From: a virus
IMG/VR virus record: IMGVR_UViG_3300033149_003801
Span: 1-64,000 of that record
Reading direction: 5' to 3' (one strand)
DNA: 64,000 nt
Made by a program: the position numbers and the translations under genes. The notes beneath the pieces were generated by a model. The model was not told the origin of the DNA, searched no databases, and was given only the letters and a program-made list of their open reading frames with translations. Positions within the stretch are counted from its first letter, which is position 1, and each line of letters starts with the position of its first letter. Of the stretch, positions 8,430-55,685 are shown in pieces.

Positions 8430-9767
8430 ATGAACAAAGAGCAGCTAGAAATGCTGGTAGCAAGCATTCCGGGATGGAACGCTTGGCGCAAGGAAAACCA
8501 TAATGTAGAGATACATCTAGCCGGAGTGAATCTGCATGGAGCTAATTTAGTAGGTGCAGATCTAAGCAGAGCTAATCTGCATAAGGCCGACCTGAGCGGG
8601 GCCGACCTACACAAGGCTGACTTACGCTGGGCTAACCTAGAAGAGGCTGATCTGAGGGAGGTCAACCTACACAGGGCCAATCTGAAAGAGGCCGACCTGC
8701 GCCTGGCCAGCCTGAGGGAGGCCGATCTGAGTGGGGCCGACCTGCGCGAGACCGACCTGAGCGGGGCCAACCTGCGCCTGGCTAACCTGCGCCTGGCCAA
8801 CCTTGTGCAGGCAAGCCTTCATAAGGCGGACCTCCATGAGGCAGACTTAACTGGCACTGATCTGAGTGAAGCAGTTATGAGTGAGGCAGTTCTGAGATTG
8901 GCTAACCTTCGTGGAGCTGACCTGAAAGGAGTCGACCTACACAAGGCTGACTTGCGTGAAGTAGACCTGAGAGAAATTAGACTGGTCGGGATAAACATGA
9001 GTGGCGCTAATCTAGCAGGGGTCAATCTGCGCTCTGCAAATTTGTTTCACACAAATCTTCGTGAAGCAGATTTGCATGAAGCAAAGCTAGTTAACGCAGA
9101 CATGGAGTTCGTCAATCTGTGTAGAGCGAACTTGCATAGAGCTTCTCTTAGTGGAGCTAACTTGAGCGGGGCTGACCTGTATAAGGCAGATCTTTCAGAG
9201 ACAAACTTGCTTGGGGCAAGCATAGATGGGGCAGATATACGTAAGGCTGACTTGTATGGATCTAGCCTATATAAGGCCGACCTAAAATACTCAAAATTGC
9301 AAGGAGCCAATCTAACTTGGGCGAGTCTTATCAATGCTAACCTGCTTAGCACCGACCTAGATGGAGCTAATCTGGGCGGAGCGAGTTTGAGTGGTGCTTA
9401 TCTACATAAAGCCAACTTAAGCGGGGTGAAGGGTCTGCTTAAACAGGGGGAATGGCTAAAAGAGAATCTTGAATTTACGCCAGAAGGTGTTATAGCCTAT
9501 AAGGCGTTTGGCATGTATCATGCAGCTCCAGATAGTTGGCGTATAGAAGTTGGTGCAGAACTGCACGAAGTGTGCAACCCTAGTCCAACAAGTAATTCAG
9601 GATCAGGAATTCATGTAGCCACACTGCCCTGGGTTAGACGCTTTGTTAAGTCAAAGACAGTTTGGAAAGTTCTCATTCCCTGGGGTTCACAAATTGTGGT
9701 TCCCTATAACACAGCAGGAGAATTTCGCGTAGACACAGTTCGATTATTGGAGGTAGTAGCAGGGTGA
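8430..9767 (+). CDS. pentapeptide-repeat protein with unassigned ~110-aa C-terminal domain
   Basis: About 60 consecutive A(D/N)LxX pentapeptides (aa ~30-333), then KGLLKQGEWLKENLEF...CNP...GSGIHVATLPW...VPYNTAGEFRVDTV. Confidence 0.9.
   Translation: MNKEQLEMLVASIPGWNAWRKENHNVEIHLAGVNLHGANLVGADLSRANLHKADLSGADLHKADLRWANLEEADLREVNLHRANLKEADLRLASLREADLSGADLRETDLSGANLRLANLRLANLVQASLHKADLHEADLTGTDLSEAVMSEAVLRLANLRGADLKGVDLHKADLREVDLREIRLVGINMSGANLAGVNLRSANLFHTNLREADLHEAKLVNADMEFVNLCRANLHRASLSGANLSGADLYKADLSETNLLGASIDGADIRKADLYGSSLYKADLKYSKLQGANLTWASLINANLLSTDLDGANLGGASLSGAYLHKANLSGVKGLLKQGEWLKENLEFTPEGVIAYKAFGMYHAAPDSWRIEVGAELHEVCNPSPTSNSGSGIHVATLPWVRRFVKSKTVWKVLIPWGSQIVVPYNTAGEFRVDTVRLLEVVAG
8517..9428 (+). 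repeat. 15-nt-periodic coding repeat (pentapeptide repeats)
   Basis: Reiterated GC(N)GA(C/T)CT(G/A)... units. Produces R/S/L-rich mirror ORFs on the - strand. Confidence 0.85.
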
Positions 9768-10783
9768 AAGCAGCACAACTGGTTAGATTGAAAAAGGACA
9801 TAGCGAGTTGGAACATCTGGTATCAGGAGAATCCCAATGAGCAGATTGACCTAAGCTGGTCTGACATGATTGGAATTGACCTACATGAGGCTGACCTACA
9901 TGGCGCAAACTTGCAGGGGACTAATCTGGAGGATGCAAACTTGCGTAGGGCCGACCTAAATGGGGCTGACCTGCGTTGGACTGATTTACACGAGGCAAAC
10001 CTGAGAGGAGCCAACCTGTATAGAGCTAATCTTGAGCGAGCAAACCTGCAAGAAGTTGATCTCAGCTGGTCTAACCTGCAAGAGGCTATCCTGTGCAAGG
10101 CAGATATGTGGCAGGCGGATCTACACTGGTCTAACATGAGCGAAGCAAGCTTGTATGAGGCCAACCTAAGAGGGACTGACCTACATAAGGTTGATCTGTA
10201 CAATGCTGACTTGCGTCACGCTGATCTCAGCTTGACAGACTTGCACAATGCAAGTCTGCGCAAGGCTGACCTTAGCTGGTCTAACCTGCAGGAGGCAAAC
10301 CTATGCGAGGTTGATTTGCAAGAGGCGAATCTATACCAGTCCAACATGCGTAGAGCAAATTTGTGTGAGGCAAACTTAAAAGGAGCTGACCTGCGCCGAG
10401 CTAATCTGTGTGATACCGACCTGCGTCACGCTAACCTGAGTGGGACGAAGGGTTTGCTTAAACAGAAAGAATGGCTCAGAGAGAATCTTGAGTTTACACC
10501 AGATGGTATTGTAGCCTACAAGGCGTTTGGTTTGTATTTTAAGGTCCCTGACAGTTGGCATATAGAAGCTGGTGCAGAGCTGTATGAGGTATGCAACCCC
10601 TGTGCAACGAATGATTGTGGATCGGGGGTAAATGTGGGCACATTAACTTGGGTAAAATATCACTCCGAAACAAGAAAGATTTGGAAAGTTCTTATTCCTT
10701 GGGGCGCACGAATTGTAGTTCCCTATAACACAGCAGGAGGATTTCGCGTAGATACAGTTCGACTGTTGGGTGTGGTAGAATAA
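9764..10783 (+). CDS. pentapeptide-repeat protein, paralog of 8430..9767 with the same C-terminal domain
   Basis: GTG start overlaps the upstream stop (GTGA). Pentapeptide repeats cover aa ~29-228. C-terminal domain is about two-thirds identical to the upstream copy by hand alignment. Confidence 0.9.
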   Translation: MKAAQLVRLKKDIASWNIWYQENPNEQIDLSWSDMIGIDLHEADLHGANLQGTNLEDANLRRADLNGADLRWTDLHEANLRGANLYRANLERANLQEVDLSWSNLQEAILCKADMWQADLHWSNMSEASLYEANLRGTDLHKVDLYNADLRHADLSLTDLHNASLRKADLSWSNLQEANLCEVDLQEANLYQSNMRRANLCEANLKGADLRRANLCDTDLRHANLSGTKGLLKQKEWLRENLEFTPDGIVAYKAFGLYFKVPDSWHIEAGAELYEVCNPCATNDCGSGVNVGTLTWVKYHSETRKIWKVLIPWGARIVVPYNTAGGFRVDTVRLLGVVE

Positions 10784-17268: not shown

Positions 17269-19785
17269 ATGCTATTGAATGCGATCTTTGCATCGCTGCG
17301 TCCCACCGAACAGATATACGTATGGCGTAGAGAACCACACAAGAGATTACTCTTAGATAACCCCGGAGAAGTCTACGAGTTTGGTCAAAAGAACCAAACG
17401 TCAGATGTTTATTTTGGAGTCGCTCCGCGAATACGTGGAGAGTTTGATACCGTTAGCAGATTAACAACGGTCTGGGCAGATGTTGACTTCAAAGACTTTG
17501 GGGGGAGTACAGAGCGAGCAGCAAAAGCGGTGGGACGCTTTCCAGTTCTACCTTCCTTTGTAGTAAGGTCTGGACGTGGATGGCACATTTATTGGTTACT
17601 TGCATCGGACGTTAATCCAAAAATCGGACAGGAGATAATGCGCGGCATCATGCATATTATTGGGTCCTGTCCAGTACATGATCCAACCCACGTTCTCAGA
17701 ATACCAGGATCCTATCACTGTAAGGATCCAGATAATAGACTTAAAGTATTTCAAGAAGAGGAGCATCAAGATTATGTATATGACGCAGAAGACCTAAGAA
17801 GGCTCTGTAGATTAGGTGCAGAGACACTTGACGCTATCCCAACGCAGGTAAGAAAGGGTTTGCGAAGCGAACGTGACTGGAGAGTTATTCGAGAGCTAGT
17901 AGCTCTTAATGTCTCTGACAGAACGATATATCAAATAGCAGCCCAACGACCTATTGGAGAACGTTGGAGAGAGAACGACTTTCGGCTTCTGCGGCAAGAT
18001 CTTTCTAAGGCTAGGAGTCATTATGCTGTAGTTGAAGAGCGCTTTATTGAAGCGCTTGACGCTTGGTACTATGTGACAGCAAAAGGCAAGAGTCAGGTAT
18101 CAACTTTTGTATTCGAGCCACAGCGGCTCATTCATAGCATAGATGCGAGAACCGAAGACGTTTTTCTGGGGCGGATGCGTTCTACAGGAAGAATTTGGGA
18201 GGATGTTTTTCTTCCTCGAAATGCCTTTTCTTCAGCGCAATCGTTTCTTCGACAATTGCCTCTGATGCACTGGCAGTGGTTTGCAAACGACTATACGACC
18301 AAACAGCTCTTGGTCTTTTTGATGAAGCAACTACATGATGCTGGAATGCCAGAAGCATTTGGCACTCGTGTTGTTGGCAGACACGACAACTTTTGGGTAA
18401 CTAAAGAGGAAACTCTTGGACCGGATAGAAGCTACTCGCCTGATGAAGCTCCATATACATTTATTTCGTTGAACACATCTCATCGAGATGCTAAGGACGT
18501 CATTCCTAATTTGGCATATCCGGAGTGTTCCAACGAAGACTATAGAGAACTCGTTCAGGAGATATCTAGGTTACTGCCGAGAATAAATGAAGTTGACGTG
18601 TCCACTCCAACCATCGGATGGATTTTTGCAGCTCCTCTAAAACCACTTCTAAACGTTGTGGGAGTTCGTTTTCCCCATCTAAACATATATGGAACGATGG
18701 GTAGTGGAAAGACAGCATCGTTGGTAGACGTTTACCTCCCGTTATTGGGAGTGAAAAATCCCACAACACAGACGTCAGAGACAACGAAGTTCGTATTGCG
18801 TTTGCTGCTTTCCTCTAGCAATGCTGTTCCAATTGTATTTGGAGAATTCAGAGAAGCCCATACTGGTCCTTTAAGGAATGACTTTCTGTCCCTGTTGCGT
18901 ATGGCATATGACACAGGGATGGATTCCAGAGGGCGTGCAGACCTTACAACAGAGACATATATCTTAAGTGCCCCTGTGATTGTCGATGGAGAAGATGCTT
19001 TTGCCGATCCAGCACTTAGACAACGATCAATAACGGTGAATCTCCATCCAGAAACAATCGCTGAGGGATCTCCCAGCAATATCGCATTCAAAAAGTTAAC
19101 CTCCCTTCCCCTAAGGAATTTCGCTAGACGGTACATTCAGAGGACCCTAAGAGAAACTCCTTCTTCTGTAGAAGAGCGGTACAACCGTCTTCTAAAATTG
19201 ACCTATGAGAACTTTCCAGATCCCCTTCCAGACCGCGTTCGCAATGGCTTAGGAGTAGTATATCTTGGGATTGAACTGTTCAATGAACATGTCACAGCCT
19301 GGGGAGGACGGGCCATCTCTATGGAGAAGAGTTCATTCAAAGAACCTATGGACAATGTTCTTATGCGGCTAAAGACGGGGGTATCCAGAGCGCTCGTTGA
19401 TGATTTTGTTGAAGACGTAATTGTCTATATATCTAACGATGCAAATTTGCGAATTACGTTTATCAATTTTTACGATTCATCAACGAACATCCTATGGATA
19501 CACTTGAATTCTGCCATCCATTGGTGGACGAGATCTAGGAGATTTGAAGGTAAAACAGTTCTTGATAATCTTGCTCTACGAGCACAACTGATGGAGCGAT
19601 GCAATCCTACGACAGGGTATGCGATACCTGAGACTCCTATAAATACAAGCCGAGGAATAATACCATGCTTTGGTATAAAGATCTCTAACTGTCAGAATAT
19701 TGGTTTGTCTGTTCCGGATAGGTTATCTACAAAAATACTAGCTATGCGCGGAAATCTTATAACTGTAAAGGAGAAATATGGGTAG
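17269..19785 (+). CDS. AEP primase-polymerase fused to a P-loop (D5/SF3-like) helicase
   Basis: AEP motifs WADVDF, SGRGWHIYW, VHDPTHVLRIPGS. Walker A GTMGSGKT. Confidence 0.85.
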   Translation: MLLNAIFASLRPTEQIYVWRREPHKRLLLDNPGEVYEFGQKNQTSDVYFGVAPRIRGEFDTVSRLTTVWADVDFKDFGGSTERAAKAVGRFPVLPSFVVRSGRGWHIYWLLASDVNPKIGQEIMRGIMHIIGSCPVHDPTHVLRIPGSYHCKDPDNRLKVFQEEEHQDYVYDAEDLRRLCRLGAETLDAIPTQVRKGLRSERDWRVIRELVALNVSDRTIYQIAAQRPIGERWRENDFRLLRQDLSKARSHYAVVEERFIEALDAWYYVTAKGKSQVSTFVFEPQRLIHSIDARTEDVFLGRMRSTGRIWEDVFLPRNAFSSAQSFLRQLPLMHWQWFANDYTTKQLLVFLMKQLHDAGMPEAFGTRVVGRHDNFWVTKEETLGPDRSYSPDEAPYTFISLNTSHRDAKDVIPNLAYPECSNEDYRELVQEISRLLPRINEVDVSTPTIGWIFAAPLKPLLNVVGVRFPHLNIYGTMGSGKTASLVDVYLPLLGVKNPTTQTSETTKFVLRLLLSSSNAVPIVFGEFREAHTGPLRNDFLSLLRMAYDTGMDSRGRADLTTETYILSAPVIVDGEDAFADPALRQRSITVNLHPETIAEGSPSNIAFKKLTSLPLRNFARRYIQRTLRETPSSVEERYNRLLKLTYENFPDPLPDRVRNGLGVVYLGIELFNEHVTAWGGRAISMEKSSFKEPMDNVLMRLKTGVSRALVDDFVEDVIVYISNDANLRITFINFYDSSTNILWIHLNSAIHWWTRSRRFEGKTVLDNLALRAQLMERCNPTTGYAIPETPINTSRGIIPCFGIKISNCQNIGLSVPDRLSTKILAMRGNLITVKEKYG

Positions 19786-22144
19786 AGAAGACAGCTTCCG
19801 ACGGAAAGACCCACTTGCACAATGTGAAAAGTGCCCATTAGCAACGCAAGTAGGTATGTACGGTCGTGGAGATATAGAGGAGGGCGCCGGACAAGCGAAC
19901 GTAGTTATCGTCGGTGAGGGACCTGGAAGAACTGAGATTGCCTTACGCCAAGTATTCGTTGGCCCTAGTGGAAAACTTCTTCACCAAATGATGGAAAAAT
20001 ATCCTTTAGGTTCATTTTGGCTAACTAACGCCGCCCTCTGTGCAGGCACTAGTGCCAAGATGAAAACACAGGCTGCAGAATGTTGCAAAGAACGGCTGTT
20101 TGCAAAGATTGCAGAACTGAGACCAAAGGTCGTTGTTTCATTAGGAAACATTCCAACTAATATCTTTCTTGGTAAAGGAGAGGGAATTACAAATCGACGG
20201 GGAACAATAAATAACATTGAGATAAACGGGTGGAAAACTACCCTGGTCCCAACGTTTCATCCGGCGGCAATATTACGAAATAATGTTCTTTTGCAGGACT
20301 TGGAAGCAGACTTTGAAAAAGTATCAGATTTGATTTATGGCGAAGCCACAGGGAGAGCCATCGTTCTCCCTCCACAACCTAACGAGATAGACTTTGAGGT
20401 AACTACAGATTATCCCAGGGTATTAGAAGAAGCAGAACGAAGTGATTTTGCTGTATTAGACCTGGAAACAACAGGATTGGATATGACTAGAGATAAAATC
20501 ATCTGTGCTGTAATTGCTACAGATAGAAACATATATTTGCTACCACAGGAAACTCTGTATTCTCCGGACTTTATAAAACAGCTTCTACGATGCAAAGCGC
20601 ATTGGAGTGGGCATAACTCAAAGTTCGATAGAAACTTCCTAGCCTATCAATTAGGAGCACGGGTTGACTTCGCTTTCGACTCTATGTTAGCTCATTACTT
20701 GCTTGATGAACGCAAGGGAACTCACGGGCTCAAGGAGATTTGCCGAAGAACCTGGAACGCACCAGATTGGGAGCGTCCGATTCGAGAGCGAAAGAGGAGA
20801 AAAGAGATTGATAATTATGGGCAAATGCCACGAGAAGAATTGTATATATACGCGGCAAACGACGGCTATTGGCAACGGAAGTTGACCCAAAGTCTAGGGG
20901 ATGAGATCGCAGCGGACCGTCGTCTTCGTTGGCTGTTCTTAGAGCTTCTTATGCCTGCTTCCAATGCTCTGTCTGACATGGAGATCGTCGGGGTGCAGAT
21001 AGATCGTGACGCACTAAGTAGGCTAATTCCCAAATATGAGAAGAGGCTAGAGGATATTACGAAGGAACTTGTTCAGCTCGCTGGACACGATTTCAACCCA
21101 AGATCACCTATTCAGGTAGCTAAGGTTATGTTTGACGAGCTTGGGCTCCAGATGATCGAGGGTAGATCCACAGGGGCTAAGAATGTTCTCAAACGTTACA
21201 CCACGCCACATCCGTTCGTTACAAAACTGCTAGAGTTCCGAGAGGCAAATACAATTTACTCTCGATACATCAAGGGATTAGCGAAACACTTAGATCCTAT
21301 GGATCGAATACATACGTCGTTCAATTTGGCAGGAACAGTTACTGGTAGGCTATCTTCGAGTAATCCTAATTTACAGAACATTCCCAGTCGCGTGCCAGAG
21401 GCAGCAAAGGACATACGTGATTTGTTCGTCGCCGATGCTGGCTTGCTTTGGTCAGCAGCGGACTTTTCTCAGATAGAATTACGAATGATCGCCCTCCTGT
21501 CAGGAGATGAATATTTGGTAGGTTGCTATCAACAGGGCCGGGATTTGCACGCGGAGATGGCTAGGGAAATCTGGGGAGATAACTATACAAAAGCTCAACG
21601 CTTCCTCGCAAAAGGAGTCAATTTTGGATTGGCCTATGGAAGAACGGTAGAAGGCATCTTGACTGACGGAACCCTAAATATTTCACAAGAGGAGGCAGAG
21701 AGACTTGCTAGGCTATTCTTTCAGAGGATGCCAGGAGTTCTTAACTGGATTAAGGGAATACATAGGTTTGTCAGAGAGCATGGTTACATTGAGTCACCAT
21801 TGGGTAGGCGTCGCCATTTTAGAGAGACTACAATGTTCTCTTCCCAGGATTTTATATCCTGGGAGAAAGTATATCGTGAAGCAGTGAATATGCCTCCGCA
21901 AAGTGCCGCTAGTGACGCTACGCTATATTCACTCATTCAGCTTCATAAAAAAGGATTTGATATCAGACTCACTGTCCACGATGATATCAAAGTACAAGGA
22001 CCTAAAGATCAGATTCGTGACATCGCTAATGAACAAATACAAATCATGTCTCAAAGCGCACGAGATTTATATGGAGACAGTATTCCCTTTCCTGCAAGTG
22101 TGGAAATAGGGCGTAGATGGGGATCACTAGAGGAGATAAATTAG
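19778..22144 (+). CDS. family A DNA polymerase with N-terminal family-4 uracil-DNA glycosylase domain and 3'-5' exonuclease
   Basis: UDG: CEKC, GEGPG, GPSGKLL, FHPAAILRN. Exo: LDLETTGLD, HNSKFD, YAANDGYW. Pol: DFSQIELRMIA, KGVNFGLAYG, VHDD. Confidence 0.95.
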   Translation: MGREDSFRRKDPLAQCEKCPLATQVGMYGRGDIEEGAGQANVVIVGEGPGRTEIALRQVFVGPSGKLLHQMMEKYPLGSFWLTNAALCAGTSAKMKTQAAECCKERLFAKIAELRPKVVVSLGNIPTNIFLGKGEGITNRRGTINNIEINGWKTTLVPTFHPAAILRNNVLLQDLEADFEKVSDLIYGEATGRAIVLPPQPNEIDFEVTTDYPRVLEEAERSDFAVLDLETTGLDMTRDKIICAVIATDRNIYLLPQETLYSPDFIKQLLRCKAHWSGHNSKFDRNFLAYQLGARVDFAFDSMLAHYLLDERKGTHGLKEICRRTWNAPDWERPIRERKRRKEIDNYGQMPREELYIYAANDGYWQRKLTQSLGDEIAADRRLRWLFLELLMPASNALSDMEIVGVQIDRDALSRLIPKYEKRLEDITKELVQLAGHDFNPRSPIQVAKVMFDELGLQMIEGRSTGAKNVLKRYTTPHPFVTKLLEFREANTIYSRYIKGLAKHLDPMDRIHTSFNLAGTVTGRLSSSNPNLQNIPSRVPEAAKDIRDLFVADAGLLWSAADFSQIELRMIALLSGDEYLVGCYQQGRDLHAEMAREIWGDNYTKAQRFLAKGVNFGLAYGRTVEGILTDGTLNISQEEAERLARLFFQRMPGVLNWIKGIHRFVREHGYIESPLGRRRHFRETTMFSSQDFISWEKVYREAVNMPPQSAASDATLYSLIQLHKKGFDIRLTVHDDIKVQGPKDQIRDIANEQIQIMSQSARDLYGDSIPFPASVEIGRRWGSLEEIN

Positions 22145-22145
22145 G

Positions 22146-22565
22146 ATGATTATTCTTGCACTAGACCCTGGAGAAACAACGGGATACGTGATTGTACAAG
22201 CAGCAAAAGCAAATGGAACAGAGCCGGATATAGACATAGAGGATACTGGAGTCCTCTCCCTTTGGAGAGGAGTAGATCACCTTATTGAAGAGCATGAACC
22301 ACAATTGATAATTGCCGAGCAATACCGGCTTTTACCTAGCAAAGCCAAAAGTCAATCGTATAGCATCATAGTCTCCTCTCGTGTTTTAGGCGTGATCCAA
22401 TATCTTGCAGAGGAGCGCAAAATCCCGTTGATCTTGCAGTCTCCCCCTGTGGCTAGATTTCATCGCTTACCAAAAGAGATATTCCGAAGGACACGCGGAG
22501 AGCATATTCGAGACGCAATGCTGCATATATGGGCCTATTTGAAAACCCAAAAGGAGGTAATTTAG
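22146..22565 (+). CDS. RuvC-like Holliday junction resolvase
   Basis: ILALDPGETTGY, IIAEQY, EHIRDA. Confidence 0.85.
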   Translation: MIILALDPGETTGYVIVQAAKANGTEPDIDIEDTGVLSLWRGVDHLIEEHEPQLIIAEQYRLLPSKAKSQSYSIIVSSRVLGVIQYLAEERKIPLILQSPPVARFHRLPKEIFRRTRGEHIRDAMLHIWAYLKTQKEVI

Positions 22566-25249
22566 TGATTGACTTCGTTCCTGCACGAGGTCGATGGCGT
22601 GCAAAGTATGTTGCTTATGGCGATGAGGCTCTTGCTATAGCCAGAGCATTAGGGGATATTCCTGGAGTATCCTATGATCGTAAGACACGCTCCGTTTTAC
22701 TCCCTGCGGAAATTCGTCTACTAGAATTAGCTGTAGAGAAAACAAGCTGTAAATTGACAGATACACTACAAAGACAATACGAATTTCACTTGGAGCGAGA
22801 GAGACAGATTGCAAATATTCTAGCCAAAACAGACGTAGAGATCAACCATCCTAAGGCATCGCTTTTGCGACCATACCAACGGATAGGTGTTGCTTTTATG
22901 CTCCTTCTAGGGCGCTCCATGCTATGTGACGACATGGGGCTAGGCAAACTTTTGCCAAATAGTGAGCCTGTGCTGACTCCTACCGGATGGGTCACAAATG
23001 GATCGCTGCGTCCCGGAGATCTCGTTATTGGCAGAAATGGAAGACCTACTGAGGTGCTTGGAGTGTACCCGCAGGGAAGACAACCAATAGTTAGAGTATC
23101 GTTTTCTGATGAGTCTTGGGTGAGATGTTCGTGGAACCACCTGTGGGCAGTACAAACTAATGATAGAACGAACAATCCGGAGCATTGGCGTGTGATGTCT
23201 ACAAGGGACATCGTTACCTCTGGAATTGTACGCAGTGATGGAAATTGCATTTGGCGTATTCCAATGGTGCAGCCTATCTACTATGCACCCGTTACGCTTA
23301 CATTAGACCCTTATCTTCTTGGTGTTCTACTAGGAAATGGTAGATTATCCGCTGAAGGATATGTTTACATAACTGCTGATGAGAAAATCATTGACCGGCT
23401 TGGTCTGTCAGGAAGGCAAATAGGTCACGTTGGTAACGGAATAATAGAGTTCTCTATTGTAGATAGAGAAGTACGAGAGTCAGTAAGAACATTGAGACTC
23501 TCAGAGGGGCACTCTTGGGAGAAGTTCGTACCGGATGTGTATTTGAGAGGCTCACCAGAGCAGCGGTTAGATCTCCTGCAAGGGTTAATGGATACAAACG
23601 GGCGTGCAATGCCGGAAGGTGGAGCAGAATTTTGTTCTACTAGCAGTAATCTCATAGATGCTGTCATAGAATTGGTACAGTCCCTTGGTGGAATTGCACA
23701 TGGTAGACGTATTGTAAGAACCACTTGCCACTGCGAGGAAAAATTAAGACAGGAGAGGAGAGCTGAACGCATAAGTATCAAGCTTCCAGCTCCGTATGTA
23801 CCATTTTGGCTGGAACGTAAAGCAACTAAATATGTCATATCTACAAAAAATCAACCAAACAGGTTAATCACCTCAATAGAAGAAGATAGTGAAGAGGAAT
23901 CTTCCTGCATAAAAGTAGCCGCAGAAGATAATCTATATGTAACTAGATCATATGTTGTTACTCACAACACAGTGCAATCAATAGTAGCAGTAGAGTCTAC
24001 AAAACGACATAATAGGGTATTGGTTGTCTGTCCCAACTCAATAAAACAGCAGTGGCAATCGGAGATATTGAAGTGGTCAGCGGAGAAGCCAAAAGTTACA
24101 GTAATAAGATGGAAAGATAGAGAGAAACAGCTTCAGAATTATTCTAAGGGATGGCTCATTGTAAACTATAACAACTTTAGAGCAGATGAGAGATTTGCTG
24201 TTTTGTGCCATTGGGACTGGACATTATTTGATGAGGGATACGTGCTGAAAAACCGTAAGACAAAAACTGTGGCGATGGCACGTAAAGTTCAAGCTAGGCG
24301 AATGAGCATTCTAACGGGAACCCCAATAGGTAATAATGTCTCTGAGATATGGTCTTTGCTGCACATTCTATATCCAAAAGATTATCCTGCATATTGGCGC
24401 TTTTTCGAGATGTACGTTAGTTACATTGAAGATATGTGGGGGAAGAAAGAGATCTTAGGTACTAAAAATACTCATTTATTACGCAGAGATCTATCTATGC
24501 GTATGCTCCAACGCAAGAAAGAGGAAGTCGCGCGGGAGATTCCTGATAAAATTAGGCAACAGATTGAGTTGGTTATGGATAAGAAGCAGCAGCAAGCTTA
24601 TAAGGACATGGCTACTAAGGGCTATTTGGAGCTTTCAGAATCTGAGGTCCTTACAGTATCAAATATGATGTCTTTGATTGTGCGACTTCGCCAAATTCTG
24701 AGCACTCCAGCTAACTTTGGGCTTCCAGATGATTCCTGCAAGCTTGATGCTGCAATGGACATAATAAGAGGAACGGACCAGAAAGTAATCGTCTTTACAG
24801 TTTATCGAAAGACTGTTCTCACCCTGTGTAAGCGCTTATCTAAGGAAGGGATTAAGCACACCATGATTATGGGAGGGATAGATATAGAGGACAGAGAGAC
24901 AGCTAAGCAAGGGATAAATGAAGGGGACGTACAAGTTCTGGTTTGTACCATCCGCTCCGGAGGACTAGGCTTGAATCTACAAGGAGCGTCAATCGGAATA
25001 TTCATAGATAAAGAATGGAATCCGATTGACCAAGCACAGGCTGAAGACAGACTTCACCGTATTGGACAAACAAAAAAGGTACAGATCATAGATTTAATCT
25101 GCAAGGGAACGATAGATGATTATGTCGAAGCGGTGCTCTCTAAGAAGCTTCGTATGACTGAGGAGATACTCAAGAAATCTCTCTTTGAGGAGCTTAAAAA
25201 ATACGTTTCCGACTTCACCCTTGTAGATAATGACTTTCCTTTTGCCTAG
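22565..25249 (+). CDS. SNF2-family helicase (intein-containing precursor)
   Basis: GTG at 22565 after AAGGAGG. DDMGLGK | intein | TVQSI; DEGY box; LTGTPIGN; helicase-C GGLGLNLQ...DKEWNP..QAEDRLHRIGQ. Confidence 0.9.
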   Translation: MIDFVPARGRWRAKYVAYGDEALAIARALGDIPGVSYDRKTRSVLLPAEIRLLELAVEKTSCKLTDTLQRQYEFHLERERQIANILAKTDVEINHPKASLLRPYQRIGVAFMLLLGRSMLCDDMGLGKLLPNSEPVLTPTGWVTNGSLRPGDLVIGRNGRPTEVLGVYPQGRQPIVRVSFSDESWVRCSWNHLWAVQTNDRTNNPEHWRVMSTRDIVTSGIVRSDGNCIWRIPMVQPIYYAPVTLTLDPYLLGVLLGNGRLSAEGYVYITADEKIIDRLGLSGRQIGHVGNGIIEFSIVDREVRESVRTLRLSEGHSWEKFVPDVYLRGSPEQRLDLLQGLMDTNGRAMPEGGAEFCSTSSNLIDAVIELVQSLGGIAHGRRIVRTTCHCEEKLRQERRAERISIKLPAPYVPFWLERKATKYVISTKNQPNRLITSIEEDSEEESSCIKVAAEDNLYVTRSYVVTHNTVQSIVAVESTKRHNRVLVVCPNSIKQQWQSEILKWSAEKPKVTVIRWKDREKQLQNYSKGWLIVNYNNFRADERFAVLCHWDWTLFDEGYVLKNRKTKTVAMARKVQARRMSILTGTPIGNNVSEIWSLLHILYPKDYPAYWRFFEMYVSYIEDMWGKKEILGTKNTHLLRRDLSMRMLQRKKEEVAREIPDKIRQQIELVMDKKQQQAYKDMATKGYLELSESEVLTVSNMMSLIVRLRQILSTPANFGLPDDSCKLDAAMDIIRGTDQKVIVFTVYRKTVLTLCKRLSKEGIKHTMIMGGIDIEDRETAKQGINEGDVQVLVCTIRSGGLGLNLQGASIGIFIDKEWNPIDQAQAEDRLHRIGQTKKVQIIDLICKGTIDDYVEAVLSKKLRMTEEILKKSLFEELKKYVSDFTLVDNDFPFA
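22949..23968 (+). mobile_element. 340-aa intein with LAGLIDADG homing-endonuclease domain, class-3 (WCT) signature
   Basis: Removing 22949..23968 restores GLGKTVQS. Block A LLPNSEPVLTPTGW, block B SWNHLW, LAGLIDADG-like LLGVLLGNG and LLQGLMDTNG, block F SSCIKV, block G VVTHN|T. Confidence 0.85.
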
Positions 25250-52908: not shown

Positions 52909-54262
52909 TTTTCATCCTTACTAGCTGCTTTTCTACGCGCTCAGCGGCTTCTTTAGTATCCATGATAGAACGAACAATGCGAACTATCTCTTCTTCCTCA
53001 TCTGTCTCGACTTCGACCTGCTCTGCCATCTCCTGCAGAAACGACTCTGGAGCATCTCCTTCAGCTACAGCTAACTTTAGCGCCTGTATTGGAGTCAACT
53101 CACCAGACGTGACCCGTAGTGCCCTCTCTCTCGCGCGTGCGTGAGCGAGCTCGACACGCTCCCGCTCAGCTGCAGGGTCTGTTGATGTAAACTGAAACTC
53201 GACAGTTTTTGGAAGGACATAGAAATTCATAGCATACTCAAACTGCTGAATGATGGCTCCAGGTCCTTTACCCCTAGATTTCGCAGACATCGACTCCACC
53301 TGTGAGGCAGTGCCTAAGTTCCCCCCTGGCAGTGGAGCAAACTCTGAATAATCAGTCCCAAATCCTATCGCCATCGTTGTAATATACCATTTATACAAGT
53401 CATCCTCATTATAACCATCTGGAAGTCCTGCGAGCTCGATAAGCTGCGCTTCCAACCTCTGCCCTGGATCGTTTCCAGAGATAACCACAGGGCCAGTATA
53501 GATCGTTCGACCCTGCGTCTGGATCTCTCTTTCAGAAGACATTTGAATAGCTTCCTCGATGGCACCATGACGAATTCCCTGAACGAACAAAACCGCAGGG
53601 ATACGTTTTCCAGAAAGCTTCTGTCGCTTATATAGCCCGATGTCCCGAATGATCTGTGCTGCACGAAGGACACGTGAAACAGCGCAAAAACCCCAATTTT
53701 TGTTTTCCTCGCGTGCAGAAGGCAAATCAACCATAGGAACTACTTCATACCAACGCAGTCTATGTATTCTTCCGGAGGAATCTTCGTAATTTACCGGCTG
53801 TTCAGGATTCCCAGTCTGCTCACATCGCTGAGAATCCAAATGGGCAATTCCAGACGCTGCAGATGCAGGACTAGCCCTTGAGGGACGCAAAATCTCAATA
53901 TATCCCCCATTGTCTTGTGTTAAGATGTCAAGAACGACCTTAGATATGAAAGTAAGCCAACCGTTGCCTAAATCAGCGCTTTGCAAAATTGTGTAATACC
54001 GATTGACAGCCTTCCTTGGACCACGCAACTTAAAATCTAGTGCCTTAAGTTTAGAACACATAGAATATATTGCCCCAGAAAGCATGGACTCCTGACGCCA
54101 AAAATTATCAAGAACGATATCTCTTGCTTTTCCAGGCCACGGAGGAATACCATCTGCCAAGTTTGCCATAAAGAAAACAAGAGGAGCTTCATGGGCCAAT
54201 GAAGTCTCCGCCCTATCCTGGACGGAAAGCTTAAGCTGTCTTTTAGGATCAGCTCCGGGCAT
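52898..54262 (-). CDS. portal protein
   Basis: 454 aa. Overlaps the terL stop. Acidic C-terminus. Canonical position. Confidence 0.8.
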   Translation of the reverse strand: MPGADPKRQLKLSVQDRAETSLAHEAPLVFFMANLADGIPPWPGKARDIVLDNFWRQESMLSGAIYSMCSKLKALDFKLRGPRKAVNRYYTILQSADLGNGWLTFISKVVLDILTQDNGGYIEILRPSRASPASAASGIAHLDSQRCEQTGNPEQPVNYEDSSGRIHRLRWYEVVPMVDLPSAREENKNWGFCAVSRVLRAAQIIRDIGLYKRQKLSGKRIPAVLFVQGIRHGAIEEAIQMSSEREIQTQGRTIYTGPVVISGNDPGQRLEAQLIELAGLPDGYNEDDLYKWYITTMAIGFGTDYSEFAPLPGGNLGTASQVESMSAKSRGKGPGAIIQQFEYAMNFYVLPKTVEFQFTSTDPAAERERVELAHARARERALRVTSGELTPIQALKLAVAEGDAPESFLQEMAEQVEVETDEEEEIVRIVRSIMDTKEAAERVEKQLVRMKNGR

Positions 54263-55685
54263 AAAGCCTCAACCTCCGTAACTCTGGATTTTCCTGTAAG
54301 ATCTGCTGGTTCATCTCGTGAACTTCCTGAACAAGGCCGTTCCAATGCTGTACGTACCAATCATGCGCGTCTGCAACAGCTACCTCAGAAGGCTCAGGAA
54401 GAACTATCCTAGACGCTACAGAATACTCATCCTTGCGCCCCCAAATTTCCTCTCGATCTTTCCCCCACAAGCCGTAGCGCAGGCAATCTGCCACATGATC
54501 ATTTTCCTTAATTACCTTTCCTGTAGTAGGATTTCTCGCATAGGAAGGAATCTCCTTACGTGAATATGTACATCGTGGATGAAAACGAACGTGCCCAACA
54601 TTATTTCCATCGCATATCCAAGAGGCGACCCGCTTAATCCCCTCCTCTACATCATGTGTTGCTCGTACAGTGTCTATGTCCTTTCTCCACAACCTAGAGA
54701 TAAACTCTGCTGCAGAGGAATCTACCAAGGCAACAGAGGGCTTTGCATAGCCTTTACTCAAGGCATTGTCAATTGAATCCTCTGCCAGTTCTCCCCTAGC
54801 AACATATTCATCAAAAACGTTAACGTAAGGAGGAATAATCTGGGCAAATAGGATTACTCTGGGATGATGTTCAGTAAACCCGTCATCTACCCACCACTCT
54901 ACAGGCACTCCATGATGATATTCTGCATCTTCCGTTATGTTTCTTCCCCCAACGCGAGAATCGAACATCTCCCAAACGACATCTTCCATCGTAACAAACT
55001 GCCCATGAAGTTCCTGTTGAGCCAGCCTACCAGAATACATACCCATGAGCATCTGATAATGAAAAGGATCTAGGTTATCTTTATTATCCTCTGTAGAAGA
55101 TGTAAAGAACTCTACGATTTTTCCTTTCCATCCCATTTCCTGCATAATCTTATGTGCAGCAGGATCAAATATAGCTCCAGAAAAGAGATCATAGAGCCAA
55201 TGATTCACCCCCGCAGGGGTAGTCGTAATCCAAAGCTGCGGGTTTTTCCCCACACGAATACGCCCAGCCAAGATGTCAAAGGCTTTCCTGGTTCGTTTTC
55301 TCGCTGCCTCGTCGAACCACGCCCAGTTTACATTTGGCCCAGCCCATCCAGATTCCTTCTCAATACCACCGTAGTAGACTACAGAACGAACTCCGTTAAT
55401 CTCAAAGATCAGCTGCTTCTTTTGTGTAAAAGGATGATCAAGATGGGCATTTATACAGTGGCTCATAGGAGCCCACTTCATAAACTCCGGAAAGGTAGAC
55501 TTAGACAATTGCGGAAAATCTGGAGCAACGATAATCCCATCTTCATTCTGTTGTATTTTTTGAATGGCCTTAATAGCTCCAGCAGCAGTCTTCCCTGAGC
55601 CAATACCGGCAATCAAACCTACATAGCGAGCACTACTAAGAAGAAAACGCTCCTGTGCTGGATGTGCTTTGAATATTTTAGGCAT
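54249..55685 (-). CDS. terL: terminase large subunit
   Basis: Walker A GIGSGKTAAG, Walker B AWFDEA, TTTPAG. C-terminal nuclease VDSS...DHVADCLRY. Confidence 0.95.
   Translation of the reverse strand: MPKIFKAHPAQERFLLSSARYVGLIAGIGSGKTAAGAIKAIQKIQQNEDGIIVAPDFPQLSKSTFPEFMKWAPMSHCINAHLDHPFTQKKQLIFEINGVRSVVYYGGIEKESGWAGPNVNWAWFDEAARKRTRKAFDILAGRIRVGKNPQLWITTTPAGVNHWLYDLFSGAIFDPAAHKIMQEMGWKGKIVEFFTSSTEDNKDNLDPFHYQMLMGMYSGRLAQQELHGQFVTMEDVVWEMFDSRVGGRNITEDAEYHHGVPVEWWVDDGFTEHHPRVILFAQIIPPYVNVFDEYVARGELAEDSIDNALSKGYAKPSVALVDSSAAEFISRLWRKDIDTVRATHDVEEGIKRVASWICDGNNVGHVRFHPRCTYSRKEIPSYARNPTTGKVIKENDHVADCLRYGLWGKDREEIWGRKDEYSVASRIVLPEPSEVAVADAHDWYVQHWNGLVQEVHEMNQQILQENPELRRLRLYARS

Follow-up and report, generated by a model that had tools for sequence, protein, structure and literature searches.

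The 64,000-nucleotide window analyzed here (positions 1 to 64,000 of IMG/VR virus record IMGVR_UViG_3300033149_003801) carries on its plus strand a continuous open reading frame, free of internal stops and frameshifts, that matches the Pfam SNF2-rel_dom and Helicase_C domains and is interrupted in frame, between the Lys and the Thr of its Walker A motif, by an insert of 1020 nt or 340 aa (Table 1). The public gene call for this frame (P0121, 894 aa) opens with VIDFV at an in-frame GTG at position 22565, and its printed sequence corresponds to aa 13 to 906 of our reading; it aligned with the SNF2 query lacking the intein at 100% identity over the best alignment, which spanned 75% of the query. 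A megablast search of the SNF2 gene against GenBank phages returned no match, the best protein identities to sequenced relatives reached 35% (SNF2 protein) and about 31% (PolA), and, on these comparisons, the phage is one without a close sequenced relative.

Table 1. Features of the interrupted SNF2 gene, with positions in the window
Feature	Position	Strand	Remarks
SNF2-family helicase precursor ORF	22529..25249	+	Continuous ORF, 906 aa from ATG start
N-extein, 140 aa	22529..22948	+	Ends DDMGLGK, the first part of Walker A / SNF2 motif I
Predicted class 3 intein, Leu1 to Asn340, 340 aa	22949..23968	+	HINT splicing domain with nested LAGLIDADG endonuclease domain
Block A (LLPNSEPVLTPTGW)	22949..22990	+	Residue 1 is Leu (22949-51); no N-terminal nucleophile
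Block B (ESWVRCSWNHLWAV)	23111..23152	+	His64 at 23138-40 and WCT Trp66 at 23144-46, both in SWNHLW
LAGLIDADG homing-endonuclease domain, about aa 106-300 of the intein	23264..23848	+	Foldseek matches to LAGLIDADG endonucleases; 32 of 34 family-conserved columns kept
LAGLIDADG helix 1 (PYLLGVLLGNG)	23309..23341	+	Asn130 (23336-38, AAT) replaces catalytic Asp
LAGLIDADG helix 2 (LDLLQGLMDTNG)	23567..23602	+	Asn217 (23597-99, AAC) replaces catalytic Asp
Block F (ESSCIKVAAEDNLYV)	23897..23941	+	WCT Cys320 (23906-08) in SSCIKV, predicted initiating nucleophile
Block G (SYVVTHN)	23948..23968	+	WCT Thr338, penultimate His339, terminal Asn340 (THN at 23960-68)
C-extein, 426 aa plus stop	23969..25249	+	Begins with Thr+1 (23969-71); carries SNF2 motifs Ia-VI

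The frame runs from ...MLCDDMGLGK through LLPNSEPVLTPTGW...SYVVTHN into TVQSIVAV..., and excision of the insert in silico restored GLGKTVQS, giving GACGACATGGGGCTAGGCAAA/ACAGTGCAATCAATAGTAGCA as the reconstructed intein-free target sequence (the slash marks the point of insertion). Two intein-free orthologs (L002 and L003) have GLGK directly followed by TAE, and a third, L001, carries an intein of 340 aa at the identical position. In the precursor, the Pfam SNF2-rel_dom profile matched in two stretches with 136.3 bits; after excision, the match to this profile (PF00176) formed a single stretch covering profile positions 1 to 288 of 290 with 156.9 bits, and Helicase_C (PF00271) scored 60.8 bits. 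The boundaries are thus fixed by the intein-free and intein-bearing orthologs together with the merging of the Pfam matches, and the sequence-only reading, which had placed an intein here with Leu rather than Cys, Ser, or Thr as residue 1, proved correct to the base. Thr+1 supplies the Thr of Walker A and is also predicted to act as second nucleophile in the splicing reaction. No further intein was found elsewhere in the window, the large terminase gene (54249-55685) being one of the places searched.

The insert belongs to a large intein family whose members occur in both phages and bacterial genomes. With the window left out, the 74 other inteins gave a profile that matched the window with 356.5 bits (E 3.5e-108), the only match among its six-frame segments of at least 50 aa, so the resemblance is not a product of chance; no NCBIfam model matched the intein. 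In the alignment of 75 members, the window included, the block B His, the block F Cys, and the Thr, His, and Asn of block G are each invariant (75/75), the block B Trp is present in 73, and the +1 residue is Cys in one member and Thr or Ser in the others. Position 1 is never Cys; it is Ala in 57 members, Gly in 7, Ser in 4, Leu in 2, Gln in 2, and Glu or Pro in the remaining 3. The residues common to inteins in general (H64, H339, and N340) are present, as are the sequence features by which Tori et al. 2010 (PMC2807308) defined class 3: a nonnucleophilic residue 1, the triplet of Trp at B:12, Cys at F:4, and Thr at G:5 (WCT), and Thr+1. The triplet (W66, C320, and T338) and Thr+1 (23969-71) had been recognized from the letters alone and are conserved in the family; the proposed assignment to class 3 is upheld by every feature that sequence can supply and by full-length homology to the characterized prototype from mycobacteriophage Bethlehem. 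By sequence, then, the insert is a class 3 intein and a member of a well-known, widespread phage family.

Structure prediction points the same way. The AlphaFold model of the intein (pLDDT 91.8, pTM 0.91) places the LAGLIDADG helices at aa 121-130 and 203-217. Foldseek matched the endonuclease and the model overall to PI-SceI (E 9.7e-17, TMq 0.75) and also to TliVMA, PI-PfuI, and I-DmoI, and matched the splicing domain to the class 3 mini-inteins MchDnaB1 (TMt 0.81) and Msm DnaBi1 (TMt 0.77). The splicing domain is thus modeled with the HINT fold, and the model, the Foldseek matches, and the family columns all indicate a two-helix LAGLIDADG pseudo-dimer of the alpha-beta-beta-alpha-beta-beta-alpha type. 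Among solved structures, those nearest to the intein in sequence belong to two inteins of class 3, MchDnaB1 and Msm DnaBi1, and to the gp41-1 intein; phmmer against PDB sequences matched the N-terminal splicing region to 6RIX at 7.9e-7 and to 6BS8 at 2.5e-5, and the gp41-1 matches comprised 6riz, a WCT-engineered variant, and 6qaz, the native class 1 protein. The 6riz variant gave no productive splicing, WCT having been grafted onto a class 1 intein without splicing resulting (PMC7664689), so the triplet alone is no guarantee of activity.

In our view, the locus is very probably occupied by a full-length class 3 intein that interrupts the P-loop of an SNF2 helicase from a tailed phage, splices by the class 3 route, and contains an endonuclease that is likely dead. 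The gene would be translated as a 906-aa precursor in which Walker A is split between Lys and Thr; with this motif broken, the precursor should not bind or hydrolyze ATP normally. We infer that splicing proceeds through a block F branched intermediate, in steps taken from PMC2807308 (Tori et al. 2010), PMC5222942, and PMC7664689. His64, against which Trp66 would pack, and Thr338 would activate Cys320 for attack on the Lys(-1)-Leu1 bond, and the N-extein would become attached to Cys320 through a thioester (the block F branched intermediate); transfer of the N-extein to Thr+1 would give an ester (the block G branched intermediate), cyclization of Asn340 would free the intein, and an O-to-N acyl shift would generate the native GLGK-T bond of an active helicase of 566 aa. 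The nested LAGLIDADG domain is predicted to be folded and is conserved, but would most likely no longer cut DNA, with Asn in place of the metal-binding Asp, and the window copy would be an immobilized intein, inherited vertically. We propose that it has been retained because the P-loop would not survive an imprecise deletion.

The probable loss of endonuclease activity, and with it of the ability to spread, is suggested by the two LAGLIDADG helices. The sequence-only reading had pointed to Asn at the normally acidic position of each (LLGVLLGNG and LLQGLMDTNG), and this is what the codons specify: the metal-binding acid that ends each helix is absent from the window. In the family, the column of Asn130 contains Asp in 65 members, Glu in 4, Asn in 5, and Ala in 1, and that of Asn217 contains Asp in 70, Asn in 4, and Gly in 1; 65 of the 75 members are acidic at both positions, and the window is the only one in which both are changed. 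The catalytic codons of the L001 intein are GAC and GAC. Each Asp-to-Asn change in the window amounts to a single G-to-A transition. The earlier suspicion of inactivation is supported by columns in which 69/75 and 70/75 members have an acid, but the accompanying description of the endonuclease as possibly degenerate goes too far, since the rest of the domain matches the family consensus: 32 of its 34 family-conserved columns are kept, K192, R206, and D215 among them, and N130 and N217 are the only departures. The Pfam LAGLIDADG_3 model (PF14528), for which most homologs have a precomputed match, scored 13.2 bits in the window (E 0.11), below the gathering cutoff of 22.5.

It is this conservation that gives some weight to the contrary reading, in which the enzyme still cleaves, or nicks, despite both Asn residues and the intein is still mobile. 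The intein is 58% identical to that of L001, more than the exteins (40-50%), which could reflect recent transfer, and D22N mMsoI retained some nicking activity (PMC2655683). Against this, I-CreI and I-MsoI lose double-strand cleavage when the corresponding Asp is changed to Asn (PMC2655683), both half-sites are changed in the window, and the prevalence of acid at both positions in the family implies that it is normally under selection. We consider continued activity unlikely, although it is the alternative to which we would give the most credence. Under neutral decay alone, the endonuclease domain would not be expected to match, apart from the two Asn residues, the conservation of relatives whose enzymes are presumably active, and it is conceivable, though improbable in our estimation, that the enzyme was specifically disarmed and then kept as a noncutting, still DNA-binding module under selection; if so, its role may be relief from self-toxicity while the fold needed for splicing is kept or, alternatively, a new one such as binding or protection of the SNF2 target site. 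In a relative-rate test of the endonuclease domain against L001, the window showed a weak and not decisive excess of unique changes with 6/6 outgroups (18-27 versus 9-16), with p values of 0.02-0.5 from nonindependent tests. Single-sequence scans of viral and genome contigs for close intein relatives found none, and a scan of metagenomes again returned only the L001 contig; with no closer relatives found, the Asp-to-Asn changes are not datable. An endonuclease that is probably inactive thus remains our preferred reading, because both catalytic Asp residues are replaced and no other member of the family shares this condition.

The host gene looks functional and dependent on splicing, to judge from exteins that preserve SNF2 motifs III, V, and VI in an intact frame. 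Motif II of the window reads DEGY and not DEAH or DEAQ; among 120 homologs, DEAH occurs in 54, DEAQ in 31, DEGH in 2, and DEGY in the window only. The Walker B Asp-Glu pair is preserved, and homologs vary at the fourth position, but none of the others in the set has Tyr there, and the unusual motif makes full function of the SNF2 gene less than certain. It could also be taken as a sign that the intein is a splicing-dead fossil and the SNF2 gene a nonfunctional or repurposed precursor, as could the Glu that the window has in place of Gly55, a residue found in 63/75 members, and another intein once assigned to class 3, that of Arthrobacter sp. FB24 (Arth_1007), is called a pseudogene in the title of PMC3196547. 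We regard a fossil as very unlikely: the residues with a known role in the prototype are all there (His B:10, Trp B:12, Cys F:4, and Ile F:5; Thr G:5, His G:6, and Asn G:7; and Thr+1), the 906-codon frame is intact, the C-extein is 47-50% conserved with the intein-free orthologs and its motifs are retained, and the intein model is confidently folded.

Less probable still is splicing without a block F intermediate, by direct attack of Thr+1 on the N-terminal junction in the manner of class 2 or from another boundary with a nucleophile such as Ser5. Class 2 (KlbA) inteins do likewise lack an N-terminal nucleophile, but they also lack the WCT triplet, which is conserved across the family of the window intein, and Cys F:4 is absolutely required in the homologous prototype (PMC2807308); we accordingly give this route hardly any credit and retain the class 3 route as the probable one. 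A boundary at Ser5 was rejected, since it would leave LLPN inside GLGK-T where the intein-free orthologs have an uninterrupted GLGKT, and a non-intein insertion domain is ruled out by those orthologs and the conservation of the family.

Class 3 inteins with SNF2 hosts and P-loop insertion were on record already in 2009. The window intein is one more well-delimited case among the P-loop-inserted class 3 inteins of phages and is not special in this respect, and knowledge of intein mechanism or distribution is unchanged by it. The N130/N217 pair would constitute a natural catalytic-dead variant. Within the same SNF2 clade, P0138 has a distant class 3 intein at the site used in the window and P0132 a class 1 HNH intein three residues upstream; together with the empty sites of L002 and L003 and the occupied site of L001, these form a small series on which the cycle of endonuclease gain, immobilization, and loss could be studied.

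BLASTP aligned the window intein over its full length with aa 141-481 of Bethlehem gp11 (MP-Be DnaB) at 28% identity (E 9e-24); the Bethlehem intein had been sought in the annotated DnaB-like gp62 region, from which it is absent, and was located in gp11, which is a "hypothetical protein" in the record and a DnaB helicase in PMC2807308, whereas the window host is SNF2. The two inteins (341 aa in Bethlehem) both combine a HINT domain with a nested LAGLIDADG domain, and both have a nonnucleophilic residue 1, Thr+1, and a phage host. His65, Trp67, Cys320, Thr339, and Asn341 of Bethlehem align with His64, Trp66, Cys320, Thr338, and Asn340 of the window, and the Bethlehem Cys320 is essential for splicing of the prototype (PMC2807308). 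They differ at residue 1 (Pro in Bethlehem, Leu in the window) and at residue -1 (Gln in Bethlehem, Lys in the window), and the Bethlehem LAGLIDADG motifs (LWLGDG and LIDSDG) keep the Asp that the window has exchanged for Asn in both.

The closest relative found, L001 (P0134, on IMG/VR contig UViG_3300017991_000544), has WCT and the same insertion site between GLGK and TVQ, but differs in having Gln1 where the window has Leu1, DEAH as motif II, and GAC/GAC as catalytic codons (AAT/AAC in the window). The same SNF2 site (DDMGLGK, AQPL...THN, T) is occupied by inteins of this family in genomes of Deinococcus, Hymenobacter, Tepidisphaeraceae, and Dehalococcoidia. Brace et al. 2010 reportedly dealt with the Snf2 intein of D. 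radiodurans. The Deinococcus loci that we examined (D. rufus, L008; Deinococcus spp., L020 and L027) share with the window the SNF2 host and the point of insertion (ILADDMGLGK, AQPL...VTHN, T(V/L)QTLAH); the search by which they were found required an intact ...D[TSC]DG motif, so all of them have the second catalytic Asp. Loci of Deinococcus and Deinococcales in any host gene have inteins 34-40% identical to that of the window, with WCT and Thr+1, and the Deinococcus inteins differ from the window intein in lying on a bacterial chromosome, not in a phage, and in having Ala1, not Leu1. By analogy with these congeners, we infer that the D. radiodurans R1 Snf2 intein occupies the site used in the window.

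MchDnaB1 (6RIX/6RIY) and M. smegmatis DnaBi1 (6BS8) are class 3 mini-inteins in bacterial DnaB, without the endonuclease that the window intein retains as a domain, and use a Cys-His-Thr catalytic arrangement (PMC7664689). Msm DnaBi1 is described as likewise inserted in a P-loop, a Ser of which acts as splicing nucleophile, and redox and zinc control of this intein has been shown. PI-SceI, the yeast VMA1 intein, is a class 1 intein (Cys1) with only about 14% sequence identity to the window intein, but the two are alike in their two-domain fold with two LAGLIDADG helices at the core; the catalytic residues of PI-SceI are Asp218 and Asp326, and at both of the equivalent positions the window intein has Asn.

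The sequence-only reading had placed a 340-residue insert within the Walker A motif of the SNF2 helicase, and this placement is borne out by the reading frame, by orthologous genes, and by the fusion of the split Pfam match upon excision. The frame is without stop or frameshift, the insert occupies exactly 1020 nt in frame, and the junctions read ...MLCDDMGLGK/LLPNSEPVLTPTGW...SYVVTHN/TVQSIVAV.... The precursor matches SNF2-rel_dom over two stretches (136.3 bits) and also Helicase_C, and in silico excision yields a 566-aa product with a single SNF2-rel_dom stretch (profile positions 1-288 of 290, 156.9 bits). Three IMG/VR orthologues with C-exteins 47 to 50% identical to that of the window settle the status and boundaries of the insert: L002 and L003 are uninterrupted (DDMGLGK-TAE and AEMGLGK-TAE), whereas L001 carries a 340-aa insert at the identical position (GLGK/QNANSEPILTP...IVTHN/TVQT). 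Searching more widely with the spliced helicase brought up 34 orthologues (39 to 55% identity); the GxGK[TS] motif was unbroken in 30, and three contained inteins. The G+C content of the insert (44.1%) shows no compositional break from the flanking exteins (42.2%).

The window belongs to the genome of a tailed phage (table below), and no tRNAs were found in its 64,000 nt. Cargo of the kind encoded by the two pentapeptide-repeat ORFs is unusual in the replication-side module of a phage. The top match of the spliced-helicase search, P0121, comes from a JGI contig and is the window's own protein; this 894-aa public call begins VIDFV, matching a GTG right at the stop codon of the upstream ORF, and either this GTG or the upstream ATG may be the start codon.

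Features of the window, with strand and position where assigned
Feature	Position	Strand	Description
Pentapeptide-repeat ORFs	8430-9767; 9764-10783	+	Adjoining, overlapping; 445 and 339 aa, nearly all repeats (PF00805, 276-289 bits)
AAA_24 ATPase		+	
Primase/polymerase-like protein		+	
UDG-exonuclease-PolA fusion	19778-22144	+	One 788-aa ORF: uracil-DNA-glycosylase-superfamily, 3'-5' exonuclease and family A DNA polymerase domains
Resolvase-like ORF	22146-22565	+	139 aa; 37-nt overlap with ATG-initiated SNF2 ORF
SNF2 ORF	22529-25249	+	906 aa
SNF2 start codons	22529; 22565	+	ATG; GTG
Intein	22949-23968	+	340 codons
Intein Glu55 codon	23111-23113	+	
SNF2 motif II	24230-24241	+	DEGY (LFDEGYVLKN)
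Tail fibre, minor tail proteins, tape-measure protein, glycosyltransferase		-	
Large terminase, peptidase/endolysin		-	

The residues singled out in that reading all lie where it put them: Leu1, His64 and Trp66 in SWNHLW, Cys320 in SSCIKV, and VVTHN followed by Thr. To gauge their conservation, 74 full-length homologous inteins were extracted with their junctions and aligned with that of the window. His64, Cys320, Thr338, His339 and Asn340 were each present in 75/75 members and Trp66 in 73; position 1 was Ala in 57, Gly in 7, Ser in 4, Leu, Gln and Pro in 2 each, Glu in 1 and Cys in none, and the +1 residue was Thr or Ser save for one Cys. N-terminal junctions were most often P-loop GK, in hosts that included SNF2, AAA, terminase, ABC and further NTPases; the MRGR of PhoH was the alternative. 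A family profile built without the window scored its intein at 356.5 bits (E 3.5e-108); in a scan of all six reading frames, taking translated segments of 50 aa or more, this was the sole match of the 74-intein profile, and no second intein was found.

The family is widespread: tblastn matched 796 GenBank phage records (604 with at least 80% intein coverage, identity up to 39%), the interrupted host genes being labelled as those of helicases, terminases, PhoH and exonucleases, a metagenome protein search gave 150 matches (best, 47% identity), and a scan of one prokaryotic genome per species gave at least 592 loci. In L049, from a Pyrinomonadaceae MAG, a PhoH-like gene apparently holds two inteins, the upstream one ending ...FVNHN/TYLAV and the second being a class 3 family member (MRGR/...THN/TLQD).

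From an alignment of 50 sequences, AlphaFold2 gave a model (mean pLDDT 91.8, pTM 0.91) with helices 121-130 and 203-217 at the LAGLIDADG motif sites. The best whole-chain Foldseek match in the PDB was PI-SceI (E 9.7e-17, TMq 0.75), followed by TliVMA, PhoVMA and PI-PfuI; the splicing domain matched MchDnaB1 (TMt 0.81) and Msm DnaBi1 (TMt 0.77), and the endonuclease domain matched I-DmoI and I-Tsp061I.

The stretches LLGVLLGNG and LLQGLMDTNG are both present as reported, and the suspicion that the endonuclease is inactivated gains support from the family, in which the residue closing helix 1 is acidic in 69/75 members (D65, E4) and that closing helix 2 is Asp in 70/75; at least one acid is missing in 10 members and both in the window alone. 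Across the 60 columns in which at least 80% of members agree, the window differs in three, with Glu in place of Gly55 and Asn in place of both Asp130 and Asp217. Glu55, in a turn just before block B where 63/75 members have Gly, is still modelled confidently (pLDDT about 97). The endonuclease domain keeps 32 of 34 conserved columns, the two exceptions being exactly the catalytic positions, for which the chance with two random changes is 1/561 by post hoc arithmetic. L001, the closest relative, has GAC at both positions and the window has AAT and AAC, so that each substitution amounts to a single G-to-A transition. Relative-rate comparison with L001 gave an excess of window-specific endonuclease-domain changes in 6/6 outgroup tests, with weak significance. 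Cleavage activity has very probably been lost, and either the loss is recent or the fold has been retained for another reason.

Other SNF2 orthologues differ at this locus. In P0138 (908 aa) the same GK/T site is occupied by a class 3 intein just 33% identical to that of the window; its motifs are LLANG (Asn) and LMDGDG (Asp). LLANG also occurs in P0011, P0019, P0021 and P0077, and may mark a sub-lineage in which one half-site is altered. P0132 (832 aa) has a different intein three residues upstream (DDMG/CVSGDAEI...VIVHN/CGKTAQ), of 284 aa and class 1 type (Cys1, Cys+1) with an HNH domain, which argues that the P-loop of this clade was invaded independently at least twice. In helicase motif II, orthologues have DEAH, DEAQ or DEGH; a fourth-position Tyr is confined to the window among 120 homologues examined and could have arisen from His by a single C-to-T change.

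On the model of the prototype, the mycobacteriophage Bethlehem DnaB intein, Cys320 would attack the Lys-Leu1 peptide bond to form a block F branched thioester, the N-extein would pass to Thr+1 as a block G branched ester, Asn340 cyclisation would release the intein, and an O-to-N acyl shift would restore GLGK-T. With its P-loop interrupted, the precursor should be ATPase-dead before splicing, an expectation modelled on the P. horikoshii RadA intein, which likewise sits in a P-loop. Redox and zinc control have been shown for Msm DnaBi1, and either may operate here; the window intein has Cys60, as do 44/75 family members at that position.

Among known inteins in the PDB, phmmer matched gp41-1 (best, the WCT-engineered variant 6RIZ; also native 6QAZ) and two class 3 inteins, Mycobacterium chimaera DnaB1 (6RIX, 6RIY) and M. 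smegmatis DnaBi1 (6BS8), at E values of 1.4e-7 to 4.1e-5. The Deinococcus radiodurans Snf2 intein is reportedly the second characterised class 3 intein. The class is defined by a nonnucleophilic residue 1, a covarying Trp/Cys/Thr triplet and Thr or Ser at +1, and occurs in DnaB, RecG, SNF2 and terminase, "most inserted in an ATPase P-loop motif" (Tori et al. 2010, PMC2807308). Its prototype, of 341 aa with Pro1 and native exteins VSQDQ and TKNTF (Tori et al. 2010, PMC2807308), was located at aa 141-481 of Bethlehem gp11, whose numbering fits exactly (His65, Trp67, Lys319-Cys320-Ile321, Thr339, Asn341). The window intein is 28% identical to it over the full length (BLASTP, E 9e-24), with all five catalytic or signature residues aligned, and this homology and the family-wide conservation uphold the proposed class 3 assignment. 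Members of this family are found at the same SNF2 site in the chromosomes of Deinococcus rufus, two more Deinococcus, Hymenobacter, Tepidisphaeraceae and Dehalococcoidia, and the Lys/Thr position of the P-loop is a "classic" intein site, class 3 inteins being documented in mycobacteriophages (Kelley et al. 2016, PMC5050341); the insert is thus a further member of an already known family. Leu1 is uncommon, yet position 1 is variable by the class 3 definition, and the double Asn in the LAGLIDADG motifs is the sole distinctive trait of this intein.
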